Positions 16,754 through 23,024 of a stretch of 32,000 nucleotides of DNA are shown one piece after another. The DNA is from Calidithermus timidus DSM 17022. GTDB lineage: Bacteria; Deinococcota; Deinococci; Deinococcales; Thermaceae. The position numbers were made by a program, and so were the translations under genes. Positions within the stretch are counted from its first letter, which is position 1. Each line of letters starts with the position of its first letter. The notes under the pieces were generated by a model that was not told the DNA's origin, did no database searches, and worked only from the letters and a program-made list of their open reading frames with translations. Location: the NCBI RefSeq assembly GCF_000373205.1, contig NZ_KB890703.1, forward strand, positions 1-32,000. Reading direction: 5' to 3'.

Positions 16754-16776
16754 GGCGTTAGACATCCCAAAACTTT

Positions 16777-16782
16777 TGTCAA
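16777..16782 (-). promoter_or_regulatory. Perfect -35 hexamer TTGACA at the recombinase-distal terminus; it pairs with TACACA (23008-23013) only after circularisation
   Basis: The predicted circle junction on the coding strand reads TTGACA-AAAGTTTTGGGATGTCT (17 nt)-TACACA-TCTCCTAAG-ATG(rep). Confidence 0.35.
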
Positions 16783-16785
16783 GCC

Positions 16786-17694
16786 CTAGCGAACGCAAAC
16801 TGCCCAAGCCGCACGCGCTAAGCGATGAGCAACAGCAACAATCGCCAGCTTCTTGGGCTTGCCCGAACCCACAAGACGACGATAGAAAGCAGCCTGCGCG
16901 GTGTCGGTGCGGGTCGCACTGACGGCAGCAAGGTAATAGGACGAGCGCAGCGCAGGCGGCCCGATACGCGAGATGCGGGCCACAGTGTCCAGCTCACCCG
17001 ACTGATAAACGCGCGGAGTAAGCCCCGTGTAAGCCGCGTAGGCCCTCGCCGAGCGGAAGCGGCGGAAGTCCCCCGAGTAGGCCAGCAACTTGAGGGCCAG
17101 GGTTGGGCCAACCCCCGGCAAGGTTTGCAGGGAGGTGAGCCAGGAAGCGCCCACTGGGTACGCCTCGACCACCGCACGCGCCTCGGAATAGAGCGATTCA
17201 CGGTAATCCTGAAGGACTTGCGGCACCGCCTGGGCGAGGCCGTGGACACGTGGATGGGCGTAGGCCCAGGCGTGCAGGCGGTTGAGGCTAGCAGTGCGCT
17301 GGGTGGTCAGGCCCTCGGCGAAGCGCACCAGGAGAGAGGCCAGATACAGGGCCTCAGGCAACGGCTCATAGGGGGTGAGATCAGCCCGATATTGAGCCAG
17401 GAAGCGGGCAAGTAGGCGAGCGTCAGCCTTATCGGTCTTGTTGCGGGTGAGGAGCGATCTGGCGTAAGAGCGCACCTGCAAAGGGTTGACCACGTAGACC
17501 GCGAACCCGGCTCGGTGCAGGGCATAGGCCAGGGGGCGGTAATAGACCCCGGTAGCCTCCATAACCACCGACGAGCTGGAGGGTAAGCGGGCAATCAGGG
17601 CGGCTATGCCCTCGGGGGTGTTGGGCCACTGGGAGAGATCATCGCCCACGGCCACATCTAGGCGAGAGCGGGAGATGTCAACGCCAACGTTCAT
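16786..17694 (-). CDS. IS110-family DEDD/serine recombinase (transposase)
   Basis: 302 aa. The N-terminal RuvC-like DEDD residues are in VGVDISRSRLD, VMEATGVYY and NKTDKADARLLA. The C-terminal Tnp domain carries YTGLTPRVYQSGE...ISRIGPPALRSSYY (the catalytic Ser context of IS110/IS1111 enzymes). It appears intact. Confidence 0.9.
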   Translation of the reverse strand: MNVGVDISRSRLDVAVGDDLSQWPNTPEGIAALIARLPSSSSVVMEATGVYYRPLAYALHRAGFAVYVVNPLQVRSYARSLLTRNKTDKADARLLARFLAQYRADLTPYEPLPEALYLASLLVRFAEGLTTQRTASLNRLHAWAYAHPRVHGLAQAVPQVLQDYRESLYSEARAVVEAYPVGASWLTSLQTLPGVGPTLALKLLAYSGDFRRFRSARAYAAYTGLTPRVYQSGELDTVARISRIGPPALRSSYYLAAVSATRTDTAQAAFYRRLVGSGKPKKLAIVAVAHRLARAAWAVCVR

Positions 17695-17709
17695 AGAGAG
17701 AGCGCGGGA

Positions 17710-17819
17710 GCCCTACGGCACCCTTACACGCGACCACGAAGGCCAACATCCCAAACGCCGATTAGTGGGCTAGGGCCACGCTAACGCACGACCACGAAGG
17801 CCAAGACTATCCACGGCCA
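17710..17819 (-). ncRNA. Candidate IS110-type bridge RNA (target-binding loop and donor-binding loop); the true 5'/3' ends are not determined
   Basis: It lies in the 144-nt gap upstream of the recombinase ATG. There are two units of [7-nt guide]-1 nt-[CGACCACGAAGGCCAA]-[10-nt guide]. 17803-17812 equals 23013-23022 (10/10). 17781-17787 is the reverse complement of 16755-16761 (7/7). 17746-17755 equals 16762-16771 (10/10). 17723-17729 is the reverse complement of 23009-23015 (7/7). As minus-strand RNA the 16-mer folds as GGCC-UUCGU-GGUC. The upstream loop is closed by GGCCGUG/CGUGGCC (17813-17819 / 17774-17780), which needs G-U pairs and so only works in the minus sense. Confidence 0.6.
17731..17804 (-). 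repeat. Two direct copies of the 16-nt unit CGACCACGAAGGCCAA, 58 nt apart
   Basis: Exact copies at 17731-17746 and 17789-17804. Each is preceded by (C)TxAC(G)C-type 7-mers and followed by 10-mers that match the element junctions. Confidence 0.9.
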
Positions 17820-17838
17820 CACCCGCGCCCGACATAGG

Positions 17839-18078
17839 TTAGCGCCTGTAGCCCCTAGGGCGCAACTTGGGCTGATAGGGGCAGGGGCTGGGATAGCGGC
17901 ACACCCGCCGCCCCTCACGCAGAGCAGCCACCTCAAGAGTATTCAGAGGCTCACGACAACGGGCGCAGCGGACGCGGGTATCAGGTTGCCGGGAGCGCCC
18001 AGGGCCACTCAGAGAGCGCAGCATCCAGGCCGTCCAGCCGATCACCAGTAGGAGCAGGAGCAGAGCTAGAAGGTTCAC
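17839..18078 (-). CDS. Small membrane/Cys-rich ORF overlapping the 3' end of the Zot-like gene in the +1 frame; possibly the missing TM/C-terminal part of pI
   Basis: 79 aa from GTG 18078. NLLALLLLLLVIGWTAWML is a TM helix, followed by CARC...(17 aa)...CRYPSPC. There is no SD. It overlaps 17981-18078 of the Zot ORF. Confidence 0.4.
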   Translation of the reverse strand: MNLLALLLLLLVIGWTAWMLRSLSGPGRSRQPDTRVRCARCREPLNTLEVAALREGRRVCRYPSPCPYQPKLRPRGYRR

Positions 18079-21088: not shown

Positions 21089-21119
21089 AAACACCTCCAT
21101 TGCTCACAGGATTCCCCTG

Positions 21120-21206
21120 TTAGAGCCGACGCAAAACAGAGCGCAGCGCGCCCGCAACGAGCCCCGCCGCGAGCCCCCACCAAAACGCAGCGGCAACTTC
21201 AGCCAT
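21120..21206 (-). CDS. Tiny hydrophobic ORF (28 aa), pVII/pIX-like
   Basis: MAEVAAAFWWGLAAGLVAGALRSVLRRL. Its ATG (21204-21206) overlaps the stop of the preceding tiny ORF as ATGA. Confidence 0.45.
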   Translation of the reverse strand: MAEVAAAFWWGLAAGLVAGALRSVLRRL

Positions 21207-21310
21207 CAGAATCTCCTGTAGAGATTCCCAGCATATCGATATGCGGCCAAAAGGACGTAGGGAGCAGAGACAGCGGCCAGCACCCAAAGAAACCAATCCT
21301 GTGGATCCAT
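21206..21310 (-). CDS. Tiny hydrophobic ORF (34 aa), pVII/pIX-like
   Basis: MDPQDWFLWVLAAVSAPYVLLAAYRYAGNLYRRF. Its ATG (21308-21310) overlaps the upstream stop as ATGA. Not in the ORF track (<60 aa). Confidence 0.45.
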   Translation of the reverse strand: MDPQDWFLWVLAAVSAPYVLLAAYRYAGNLYRRF

Positions 21311-21387
21311 CAGAAATCCCCCAGAATGGCCCCGGCAATGAGCCCAAGAGCAAACGCGAGGATCTTCAGAATCTCCAGATCAAGCAT
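21310..21387 (-). CDS. Tiny hydrophobic ORF (25 aa)
   Basis: MLDLEILKILAFALGLIAGAILGDF. Its ATG (21385-21387) overlaps the last codons of the gV-like ORF. Not in the ORF track. Confidence 0.4.
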   Translation of the reverse strand: MLDLEILKILAFALGLIAGAILGDF

Positions 21388-21676
21388 TGGCCTTTTCCTT
21401 GACAGGAGCGACGGCGGCCAAAAATCTAGCAGCGGTGACGAACTGCCGCGCAATGTTTTTCTCCCGGAAACCATCCCTAACGCGCAGATCGATCTGAAGA
21501 TCGTAGAGCCCTGGAAAAACGTTCATACCAGCTACCACGTCAGGGTCAGCGTCCAACTCCAGCGCATTTAGTCCGCGATAATCCGAGCTAGACGGGGTAG
21601 TTGCCACGACGATGCCAGCAAAACGCCTGCCATCCTTAGAAAGCCTGCTAGAAGCCCCTAGAACCATCAACGTCAT
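21380..21676 (-). CDS. gV-like protein (putative ssDNA-binding protein), assigned by position and size
   Basis: 98 aa from ATG 21674-21676, preceded by GGAGGAG (the alternative ATG 21688 gives 102 aa). Its position between the rep and coat modules matches Ff gene V. I cannot confirm any sequence motif. Confidence 0.45.
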   Translation of the reverse strand: MTLMVLGASSRLSKDGRRFAGIVVATTPSSSDYRGLNALELDADPDVVAGMNVFPGLYDLQIDLRVRDGFREKNIARQFVTAARFLAAVAPVKEKANA

Positions 21677-21711
21677 AATCTCCTCCATGCAAACGGCTTA
21701 GCCGTAGTTGC

Positions 21712-22998
21712 CTACGTAGAAGCGACTCCCCCATAGCGCCCCAGAGCAGAGAGATAGCGAGCGCTGAACTCGTCGGTAGAGAGCGCCGCGATACGCGAGG
21801 GATCCAGCCCGAGCAAATAACGAACACGTCTCAGCCACGCCAGCAGCAGCGCCGGAGCTGGAGCCGAGTGGTACAGCCCCAGAGATGCCGCGGCAGAAAT
21901 TACGCAGCCGACCGCTTGCGTGAGCAAACGAGCCGCGTCAGCCAGTGGCGCACGCACTGAACGGGACACAGAGCCCGCAGAGCCGGCATCAAACGCAGCG
22001 ATCACGTGAAGCCACAACGGATCAAGCCCGCGATTGCGCACAGCTGCGTCGCCATGCGACTCACGCAGAGTCAGCCACTCACGCGAGAGATAGGCCCAGA
22101 GCGAGCCCAGCGCGCCGCGGAGGATGTCCCAGTCACGCAGATCACGGCCAACGCCAATATCCATTGTCGCAAGGGCGTCAGCCCGCACCTGATACTCAAC
22201 GCGGATAACGTGCCCCTCGGGATTGCCGTAAGACTCCAGCAGGAGCTTAGCGCCATAGTCAGTACGAGCCTGGAGACTTTTGGAGTACACGCGAGCCAAG
22301 AGGTCACCTGCCCCGAACCGGAAACCAGACCAGGACGGCCCCCGATAGTGAATTTCTACGGGATGGACTTCATAGGCGGGTGTCTCGTGCATAGCGGCCC
22401 CCGTGTTACCCATAAGGGGGCCGCCCTGGGGCGCTTGCGCGCCCGCAGGGCTGGACCAGATGGAGCGGGAGCGAGCGCGGCTAACGAAGCGGCCCAGATC
22501 ATCCAGACCTAGCGGAGCAGGCGCCAGGATGTCAGCAAAGAGGTCGACGCGCGACACCTGGACCCGCTCGGGCTGAGCGCCGACCAGCGCCGACAACTCC
22601 TGGACAATCATGGCAACAACAGCGTCTACATCACGGGCAGCAGCCATCATGTAGCGACCCGAAATTTCGACATAGGCTTGCACCTGTCCGGTACGCCGGA
22701 CAGTGGGGCGCGGATGAGCAAGAGAAACAGACAGCATCCCCCCCTGGAACATCAGACGCCAGCGGAATTTGCGGCCGGGCTGAACCTCGCAAACCTGATA
22801 ATCGCCGCGAGAGGCATCCCCCAGTGGATTCCACAGAGGCAGATACTCGTTAATTCCGAGAAAACGGCCCTCCCCATGCTCGCGAAAATTGGACAGAGCA
22901 GCGTCGAGAGCGGCCTGAAACGATGCTGGGAGATCGTAGGAGTCCCCCCAGGAGAGCCAGAAGACAAAGGTGTCAACGCCGTAGCCGAGTAGAGACAT
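21712..22998 (-). CDS. Rolling-circle replication initiation protein (Rep_trans/RstA-like)
   Basis: 428 aa and the first gene of the train. The motifs SRVDLFADI and ...GDLLARVYSKSLQ... resemble the RxDxAxD and RxYdK signatures of the Rep_trans family (CTXphi RstA, pT181 RepC) as I recall them. Confidence 0.6.
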   Translation of the reverse strand: MSLLGYGVDTFVFWLSWGDSYDLPASFQAALDAALSNFREHGEGRFLGINEYLPLWNPLGDASRGDYQVCEVQPGRKFRWRLMFQGGMLSVSLAHPRPTVRRTGQVQAYVEISGRYMMAAARDVDAVVAMIVQELSALVGAQPERVQVSRVDLFADILAPAPLGLDDLGRFVSRARSRSIWSSPAGAQAPQGGPLMGNTGAAMHETPAYEVHPVEIHYRGPSWSGFRFGAGDLLARVYSKSLQARTDYGAKLLLESYGNPEGHVIRVEYQVRADALATMDIGVGRDLRDWDILRGALGSLWAYLSREWLTLRESHGDAAVRNRGLDPLWLHVIAAFDAGSAGSVSRSVRAPLADAARLLTQAVGCVISAAASLGLYHSAPAPALLLAWLRRVRYLLGLDPSRIAALSTDEFSARYLSALGRYGGVAST

Positions 22999-23024
22999 CT
23001 TAGGAGATGTGTAAGACTATCCCC

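Follow-up and report, generated by a model that had tools for sequence, protein, structure and literature searches.

The ordinary IS110-family element is compact and measures ~1.2-1.5 kb, of which ~200 nt form a non-coding left end, and in the family member IS621 the recombinase is guided by a bridge RNA encoded directly upstream of its gene (PMC11208160; Durrant et al. 2024; Hiraizumi et al. 2024, 2026). Recombinases of this family also occur in filamentous phages (inoviruses). Those passages of Kolesnik et al. 2024 (PMC11437467) that concern the Thermus phages Zuza8 and Zuza27 describe an IS110 transposase in both, together with proviruses having the endonuclease and the transposase at opposite ends, and propose transposase-mediated integration by analogy with Neisseria Nf (Kawai et al. 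2005). Virion production is shown there for Zuza8, Zuza27, and phiOH3. Here we describe a filamentous prophage of Calidithermus timidus DSM 17022 found within a stretch of 32,000 nucleotides (contig NZ_KB890703.1, positions 1 to 32,000), called the window below. The insert occupies 16762-23015 on the minus strand (6,254 bp, with one copy of the core dinucleotide AG, CT on the element strand, counted). It was very probably integrated by an IS110-type recombinase whose own bridge RNA chooses both the phage and the chromosomal attachment sites (attP and attB).

The boundaries of the insert are given by relatives that lack it. The same locus was retrieved from relatives via hisA homologues, and two of these, L106 (NCBI GCA_003574345.1) and L107 (a JGI metagenome), are phage-free with the order hisA, 52 nt, a lapA-like gene, and recJ. 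Their intergenic sequence ends ...CCTTTGGCGTTAGACTATCCCC|ATGATCGTCCTCAAC, which is window 16750-16761 joined to 23016 onward, thus fusing 16761 straight to 23016 and giving the insert boundaries exactly. The unoccupied site reads hisA-TTTGGCGTTAGACTATCCCC-ATG(lapA-like) in both relatives (within the sequence ...CCTTTGGCGTTAGACTATCCCCatgatcgtcc...) and is almost verbatim the empty site predicted by an earlier note that had been made from the letters of the window alone. The AG dinucleotide (CT in the element sense) is present once in the empty site and once at each end of the insert. On one side of the insert lies the right target (RT) half-site with the core, GCGTTAG on the plus strand and CT-AACGC in the element sense (16755-16761), which is intact in L106 and L107. 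On the other lies the left target (LT) half-site, ACTATCC on the plus strand and GGATAGT in the element sense (23016-23022), which is directly 5' of the lapA-like start codon at 23025 and is also kept in the empty sites. The right-end terminus of the element itself (16762-16771, minus strand) is the left donor (LD) half-site, TTTGGGATGT in the element sense, and the left-end terminus (23008-23015, minus strand) consists of the core plus the right donor (RD) half-site, CT-TACAC. When metagenomes were searched with an exact 20-mer of the empty site the only match lay inside an unrelated coding region and was due to chance. A tRNA gene as the target was ruled out, as the window has no tRNA genes. 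The GC content of the insert is 0.57-0.62, versus 0.65-0.68 in the flanks, and a plus-strand AT skew of 0.25-0.35 runs throughout the insert. Because the low GC content and the uniform skew cover the recombinase region too, the recombinase appears to have belonged to the phage genome for a long time.

The recombinase gene (16786-17694, minus strand) encodes a 302-residue bridge-type protein of the IS110 family, in which an N-terminal RuvC-like DEDD domain is joined to a C-terminal Transposase_20 domain that carries the catalytic serine, with matches to PF01548 (residues 3-142, E=8e-24) and PF02371 (residues 188-272, E=2e-22). Residues 3-299 align with the transposases of IS621 (8wt6, E=5e-35) and ISCro4 (9t56), and the motifs vGvDiS, mEAtg, KTDkaDarl, and tPRvyqSGe are visible in the alignment; as in IS621, these would hold the catalytic residues. 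The protein is 100% identical to a Calidithermus timidus protein and 56-59% identical to the recombinases of phiOH16, Zuza8, and Zuza27.

Between the recombinase gene and the next open reading frame (ORF) the 16-nt repeat CGACCACGAAGGCCAA occurs twice, at 17731-17746 and 17789-17804, and each copy is bracketed by two short segments which, as read on the minus strand, have the properties of guides. In the 5' unit the left target guide (LTG, 17803-17812) is GGAUAGUCUU in the RNA sense and matches the host flank, the plus-strand sequence AAGACTATCC being present both there and at 23013-23022. The right target guide (RTG, 17781-17787) is GCGUUAG and is the complement of the other host flank; that is, CTAACGC is the reverse complement of GCGTTAG at 16755-16761. 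In the 3' unit the left donor guide (LDG, 17746-17755), UUUGGGAUGU in the RNA sense, matches the element end, with ACATCCCAAA occurring both there and at 16762-16771. The right donor guide (RDG, 17723-17729), GUGUAAG, is the complement of the opposite end, CTTACAC being the reverse complement of GTGTAAG at 23009-23015. All four matches abut the core CT, which is covered by three of the guides; in most elements the LDG has a U opposite the core C, and only in the relative L094 does the LDG cover CT. All ten statements of the earlier note on these strings and their coordinates proved exact, as did its remark that no GTGTAAG-type end exists near 17840, the further copies in the window being at 13882 and at 17027, a position within the recombinase gene. 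Its opinion that the four matches are hard to ascribe to chance also stood up. The composite LT+CT+RD derived from the loops, GGATAGTCTTACAC, has a single exact match in the 32-kb window, at 23009-23022, and the composite LD+CT+RT, TTTGGGATGTCTAACGC, likewise has one, at 16755-16771, whereas neither junction was matched in 100 dinucleotide-preserving shuffles with one to two mismatches allowed.

The earlier note had asked whether the guides covary with flanks and termini in other copies, and they do so in ~12 independent homologous elements. These relatives were taken from the contigs of recombinase homologues plus the circular phages phiOH16 (L001), Zuza8 (L002), and Zuza27 (L003). Directly upstream of the recombinase the two hairpins recur in every relative, bracketed by segments that vary. 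The RTG matches its own flank in nine of nine integrated relatives and the sequence differs each time: CTAACGC in the window, CTAGGGG in L083, CTATGGAC in L086, CTAGGAC in L088, CTAAACCAC in L089, CTACACCA in L094, CTAAGGCA in L096, and CTAGCCC in L098, with CTCAGG also among the nine. The far junction composed from LTG plus RDG alone has a single occurrence per 20-kb locus, which lies 6-7 kb upstream on the outer border of the phage genes (14/14 matches in L098, 13/14 in L094 and in the window, and 12/14 in L083). When match fractions with an element's own junction were compared to those with the junctions of other elements, the values were 0.89 versus 0.43 for LT, 0.98 versus 0.45 for RT, 0.92 versus 0.48 for LD (LD/LDG, 11 elements), and 1.00 versus 0.54 for RD. 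The target arm thus varies across homologues, following their flanks. In the circles of the isolated phages phiOH16, Zuza8, and Zuza27, which contain the recombinase, the RNA, and an intact attP, the donor-loop segments match one site, the joined attP, in the short stretch that separates the recombinase gene from gene II. Relative to the recombinase gene, attP is inverted in Zuza8, Zuza27, and the integrated L090 as compared with the window, phiOH16, L083, and others, and the L090 junctions are consistent with this orientation. These findings, together with the empty site and the lack of stand-alone copies among the examined relatives of at least 44% identity (below), support the view of the earlier note that the mobile unit is the phage and that the bridge recombinase is its integrase.

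As a positive control an E. coli record of 1.66 kb with an IS621 copy (L114) was read by the same procedure. The LTG, AUCGGGCCU, was paired with the flank ATCAGGC-CT, the left end begins TGTAT, and the LDG, ACAGUAUCA, was paired with the right end ACAGTAT-CT and covers only the C of the core. The target so obtained agrees with the published ATCAGGCCTAC/ATCGGGCCTAC (PMC11208160).

The segment that carries the guides is predicted to be a bridge-RNA-like non-coding RNA of ~130 nt (17700-17830, minus strand), in which a closing helix (17822-17830 with 17700-17708) encloses two arms. The target-binding arm (17774-17818) consists of the basal stem GGCCG/CGUGGCC, the LTG, the hairpin GGCC-UUCGU-GGUC, and the RTG, whereas the donor-binding arm (17717-17759) has the LDG, the same hairpin, and the RDG and matches both prophage termini. 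A consensus obtained with RNAalifold on an alignment of 13 homologues has the closing helix and two arms, each with a basal stem, an internal loop of ~10+10 nt, and an apical hairpin. Standard pairs are formed by 93.9% of the alignment cells, versus 39-52% when the partners are slid. Compensatory changes are present at eight pairs, a number reached by 0 of 500 shuffles, and fall mostly in the closing helix (for example GGGGCAGG/CCUGCCCC, GGGGUGAG/CUCACCCC, and GGGGAUAG/CUAUCCCC). The consensus also has six conserved and invariant G-U pairs, indicating that the RNA strand is that of the recombinase, as the earlier note had argued from the G-U pairs of the window. R1, a covariance model built here, scores 117.8 bits at 17700-17830. 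A conserved GCGCTA[A/G]NNT upstream of the RNA was considered as a -10 box and rejected, since it overlaps the conserved RR-stop of the preceding small ORF and is inseparable from coding constraint.

We propose the following scheme. The integration module would consist of the IS110-type bridge recombinase and the bridge RNA encoded directly upstream, the RNA presumably being made and bound by the enzyme. The loop of the 5' arm (LTG GGAUAGUCU and an RTG complementary to CT-AACGC) would read the chromosomal GGATAGT-CT-AACGC between hisA and the lapA-like gene, and that of the 3' arm (LDG UUUGGGAUGU and an RDG complementary to CT-TACAC) would read the phage attP, TTTGGGATGT-CT-TACAC. This attP would be present in the circular replicative form only, where it would lie in the gap separating the recombinase stop codon from gene II. 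The predicted attP and attB sequences are TTTGGGATGTCTTACAC and GGATAGTCTAACGC, respectively. The recombinase-RNA complex would synapse the two sites and exchange strands at the CT core to give LT-CT-RD next to gene II and LD-CT-RT next to the recombinase gene, such that phage genes fill what is ~200 nt of non-coding left end in an ordinary IS110 element. Excision may be the work of this complex too, acting across the two loops in the manner reported for IS621 (PMC13626964), and would give the circle junction ...GGAGATGTGTAAGACATCCCAAAACTTTTGTCAAGCC... and the restored chromosomal site TTTGGCGTTAGACTATCCCCATG.

The core also lies within a putative promoter. A -35 box, TTGACA, is located at 16777-16782 (minus strand) between the recombinase stop codon and the terminus, and the left-end terminus overlaps a -10-like TACACA which lies 17 nt upstream of the gene II ATG, so that the circle reconstitutes TTGACA-17-TACACA. 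In the seven junctions that were pattern-scanned, TTGAC[A/T] precedes by 17-18 nt a hexamer that starts right after (or on) the core. The hexamers are TACACA in the window and L083, TACATT in L094, TACAAT in phiOH16, TACTAT in Zuza27, TACCGT in Zuza8, and TACCAT in L090. By eye the same box and spacing are seen in L086, L088, L089, L096, and L098, the -10 hexamer being taken from the guide where the far end is missing; that of L098 is TAGTAT, read from the right-end sequence and the left junction. The circle junction of phiOH16 has a promoter score of 11/12. A hexamer starting with TAC follows the core in both attP orientations, which suggests selection for the overlap of core and -10 box. With the -35 box next to the recombinase and the -10 box next to gene II, integration separates the two, and together they would form a gene II promoter that is split by integration and restored in the circle. 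This putative promoter points toward gene II and the rest of the phage operon, all in one orientation, with the RNA and the recombinase as its last members. Integration would therefore disconnect the operon from its promoter and excision would reconnect it.

Judged by its genes, the insert is a complete phiOH16-like (Tubulavirales, Thomixvirus-like) filamentous prophage. Every sizeable ORF within 16762-23015 is on the minus strand, the gene set is complete, and the ORFs are intact. By Pfam and PHROG matches these minus-strand genes are, in order from the left end, a gene II-type replication endonuclease (21712-22998, phrog_33635 E=3e-70); a probable single-stranded DNA-binding protein in the gene V position (21380-21688, phrog_38435 E=1e-18, syntenic with phiOH16 gene V); the major coat protein (20879-21100, PF05356 Inovirus Coat protein B, phrog_33753 E=1e-17); a pIII-like attachment protein with a TSP3 repeat (19462-20877, phrog_36046 E=3e-63); a pVI-like minor coat protein (18910-19290, phrog_37052 E=8e-18) at the position of phiOH16 gene VI; and a Zot/pI-type assembly ATPase (17981-18976, PF05707 E=6e-13, phrog_20922 E=3e-124). 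The features by which inoviruses are recognized (Zot/pI, major coat protein, gene II endonuclease, and attachment protein, all co-oriented, and a size within 5-9 kb) are thus all present, and the DNA of the insert has ~70% nucleotide identity and synteny with phiOH16, Zuza8, Zuza27, and OH3.

The last gene before the RNA is a small ORF (17839-18078, minus strand) that stops just upstream of it and encodes a predicted membrane-anchored, four-cysteine (zinc-ribbon-like) protein. It has no Pfam or PHROG match, and conservation at the protein level is seen in 10 of 13 related elements. Homologues are present in L083, L086, L088, L089, L090, L091, L096, Zuza8, and Zuza27, whereas the copy in phiOH16 is truncated and the distant L094 and L098 have none. 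The product of ~75 residues has an N-terminal hydrophobic helix and a four-cysteine C-terminus, and the ORF lies outside the nine annotated Zuza8/Zuza27 genes. Its motif is RCxxCGMPHxLALQVKxxKRxCPxVAxxxCPYDPRRGxYRxRR in the Thermus phages and CARC...CRYPSPCPY in the window. Two observations concern neighboring DNA. In the host flank of the window the recJ-like ORF (23339-25453) holds a 42-nt tandem repeat at 25147-25269 (2.5-2.9 copies, 89-98% matching, according to the array called), which encodes repeated DDPLSGQPMAVHQQ units near the C-terminus. In L086 the prophage, that of Thermus sp. PS18, adjoins the end of a tyrosine-integrase prophage.

Several observations weigh against RNA-guided integration of the phage as we propose it. 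The LDG ends at the core in most elements, versus a core included in all four pairings in the description of IS621. The left junction of the PS18 prophage (L086 3650-3700) is GTACACTTTAGGTTACAAG rather than the expected GTACACT-CT-TACAAG and thus has four extra bases, and the LT match of L090 is 7/9. The -10 hexamer of the window, TACACA, lacks the final T and fails the rule of the promoter scanner, and no promoter-like site for the RNA was found near it in the prophage. The separate 5' stem-loop is absent from the 13-homologue consensus, which has instead the closing helix formed by the 5' and 3' ends, although such an element may lie further upstream. No bridge-RNA family of Rfam matched at the gathering or E-value thresholds, the sole Rfam match being a chance-level sX15 on the wrong strand. 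In 0.9 Mb of plain-IS110 loci model R1 detected, besides the window, only a weak Deinococcus match, and so missed the RNAs of the more distant elements. Finally, the fold of the single sequence is no better than that of shuffles (z = 0.42), and the structural support is therefore comparative rather than thermodynamic. This last result, together with the shortness of the segments (7-10 nt), could be taken to mean that the similarities arose by chance in GC-rich DNA and that the region is a mere leader or terminator of the recombinase gene. We consider that hardly credible. The composite junctions were never recovered from shuffled sequence, the helices show compensatory changes, and the pattern is repeated with different sequences in ~12 elements and again in the Nf-like oral inoviruses described below. 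Since flanks, guides, and proteins differ among them the homologous loci are not assembly duplicates, and covariation effectively refutes chance.

A different possibility is that a compact IS110 element of ~1.1 kb, recombinase plus RNA, is nested at the edge of a prophage that was integrated otherwise, by XerCD at a dif-like site or by a tyrosine integrase. Many inoviruses use XerCD, and the recombinase and RNA are indeed contiguous at one end of the insert, but we judge this arrangement very improbable. There is no RD-type end near 17840; instead the terminus that the RDG matches is the far one, at a distance of 5.3 kb in this element and of 6-7 kb in L083, L094, and L098. The empty site reveals a single insertion, at a CT core that matches the target-binding loop. 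All examined relatives of at least 44% identity for which upstream DNA is available adjoin Zot genes, with at least three different Rep types, and none of the homologues at that level shows recombinase and RNA moving alone, the behavior that the earlier note had named as evidence against its view. In plain Deinococcus IS copies, in contrast, the distance from the left end to the gene is only ~215 nt. A pattern scan of genome contigs, with patterns from the recombinase alignment that proved too generic, gave among the matches listed only IS110 elements of 38% identity or less and none from Thermaceae; these loci served as plain-IS comparators. The nearest stand-alone relatives seen, at ~35% identity, are the compact Deinococcus IS110 elements L008, L010, and L014, which have a similar target-arm hairpin, GGUCGUUCGAGACC, and TTGACG as the -35 box in the right end; the guide register near their core differs. 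Loss of the module from a phage is also at odds with a nested element. Relative to phiOH16, phiOH3 (L102) has an 838-bp internal deletion that cuts through RNA and gene, taking the donor arm and recombinase codons 1 to ~252 and leaving the target arm, the final ~155 nt of that gene, and the attP/promoter, which is intact. To judge from the two genomes, this is an imprecise deletion and not IS excision, and with the donor arm and most of the recombinase gene deleted it would account for the non-integrating lifestyle of phiOH3. Another reading, which we regard as unlikely though less so than a nested element, grants that the ends are bounded by guides and takes the insert as an expanded IS110 with captured, possibly defective phage cargo rather than a virus that makes virions. 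IS110 loci that carry cargo, some as large as ~100 kb and in part matching phage references, are on record (bioRxiv 10.64898/2026.08.14.744561), and the window element is known from its genes and not from virions. Yet it has a full set of genes whose ORFs are intact, shows a uniform AT skew from end to end, and has a layout that recurs with three different Rep types. Moreover, the three closest isolated relatives are, according to the passages of PMC11437467 that treat them, plaque-forming filamentous phages. Their packaged circular genomes, as read here, hold recombinase, RNA, and attP.

RNA-guided phage integration may also extend beyond Thermaceae. A tblastn search of phage records gave ten oral Inovirus D_HF genomes and two lemur Dulem viruses, which are Nf-like, have TspB, and encode a ~30% identical IS110 transposase between Zot and Rep. 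Donor sites were sought in these viruses as the longest substrings common to the 110-nt region preceding the transposase and the gap between transposase and Rep, as a k-mer scan was too noisy. In L104, L105, and L108-L113 (OR148969-83, Dulem virus 50) an LDG-hairpin-RDG unit lies just before the transposase ATG, and its 5' segment covaries with the site in the transposase-Rep gap (ACACTAT, CTATCAT, ATACCAT, ATATCAT, GTAGTAT, and ACAGTAT). The gap site continues CT+TATATATT in five of the six variants and CT+TGTATATT in the ACAGTAT variant, and a -35-like box, TTGAC or in some a one-mismatch variant, lies upstream. The layout of the gap site is -35...LD-CT-(-10). In the pair L105/L113 the donor guides and the donor are the same as those of IS621. 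Note that these two genomes have two donor-like sites 45 nt apart, ACAGTATCTTGTATATTC and TAACAGTATCTTAGGCAAC (L105 3190-3260, L113 2419-2490), the second of which may be a recombination scar or an alternative site. From the donor units, the same RNA-guided attP logic probably applies to the Neisseria-type filamentous phages.

The earlier note regarded RNA-guided integration of a filamentous phage as undescribed. The RNA and its guide logic do look new in a phage, whereas the enzyme does not: IS110 transposases situated at an end of inovirus proviruses are already published for Thermus and Neisseria, those of Thermus filamentous phages and proviruses in 2024 in the passages concerned of PMC11437467. 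No literature linking bridge RNA, IS110, or seekRNA with inoviruses or filamentous phages was found, in a search of incomplete coverage that gives absence of evidence only. If correct, this would be the first virus found whose integrase picks attP and attB via a guide RNA, and would extend bridge recombination to lysogeny. Guide changes would explain why Thermus, Meiothermus, and Calidithermus inoviruses occupy differing chromosomal sites. The predicted attB sites are CAGTATA-CT-TTCCCAC for phiOH16, GGGTAAG-CT-TTGGGAC for Zuza8, and GGGTAAA-CT-CAAGGAC for Zuza27, and the donor-loop logic of the Nf-like viruses makes site choice by Neisseria Nf/MDA testable. The split promoter suggests a minimal, repressor-free control of lysogeny. 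More tentatively, and with somewhat less than even confidence, RNA-guided and reprogrammable recombination could be how no fewer than two distant lineages of inoviruses, the Thomixvirus-like phages of Thermaceae and the Neisseria Nf-like oral phages, natively establish lysogeny. In both the attP core would lie in the promoter of the replication operon, so that integration turns it off and excision turns it on with no dedicated repressor, and new sites would be acquired by mutating ~14 RNA nucleotides. The ~300-residue recombinases from thermophiles, probably thermostable and naturally having >5 kb between terminus and guide, are of interest as bridge-editing tools.

Among described systems, the Thermus phages phiOH16, Zuza8, and Zuza27 have the gene order of the window element, which is thus a Calidithermus member of their group. 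The passages of PMC11437467 on these phages contain no guide RNA, attP/attB, or split promoter, which are added by the present analysis. Neisseria Nf/MDA (Kawai et al. 2005, as cited in the passages concerned of PMC11437467) have the same order of Zot, transposase, and Rep, with an IS110-family (Piv-like) transposase and integration into dRS3 repeats, but their recombinase is only ~30% identical. The expanded IS110 loci of Hu et al. 2026 (preprint, 10.64898/2026.08.14.744561) resemble the window element in being much larger than 1.5 kb and still bounded by bridge-RNA matches. They differ in that their cargo is mostly plasmid-derived and enriched in resistance genes, with progressive additions and half-matches, and inoviruses are unmentioned in that preprint, whereas the window cargo is a coherent autonomous virus of conserved architecture. 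A further filamentous phage, CTXphi, also integrates site-specifically from its circular form. It relies on the host tyrosine recombinases XerCD acting at dif on a folded single-stranded attP, with no phage-encoded enzyme and no RNA guide. Unlike in CTXphi, nothing dif-like is involved in the window element.

The closest likeness in mechanism is to IS621 and the IS110 family (PMC11208160; Durrant et al. 2024; Hiraizumi et al. 2024, 2026). Homology of the recombinases is full-length (E about 1e-35), and in both systems the RNA lies directly upstream of the recombinase on the same strand, with the 5' loop for the target and the 3' loop for the donor, the former more variable than the latter. Left guides are in the top-strand sense and right guides complementary, the core is CT, and, by sequence, a -35 box in the right end meets a -10 box just inside the left end such that the promoter exists only in the circle. 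The differences are that the left end of the window element is 5.3 kb (17831-23015, at least seven phage genes) rather than ~190 nt, which departs from the compact IS110 layout; that the RNA has a long-range closing helix and no recognizable 5' stem-loop; that the protein has 302 residues versus 328 in the PDB chain; and that the host is a thermophile. The junction promoter of IS621 drives the bridge RNA, whereas that of the window would face gene II, and the inverted attP of Zuza8, Zuza27, and L090 would be unexpected for a compact IS, in which the promoter formed at the junction has to be directed into the element's own RNA.

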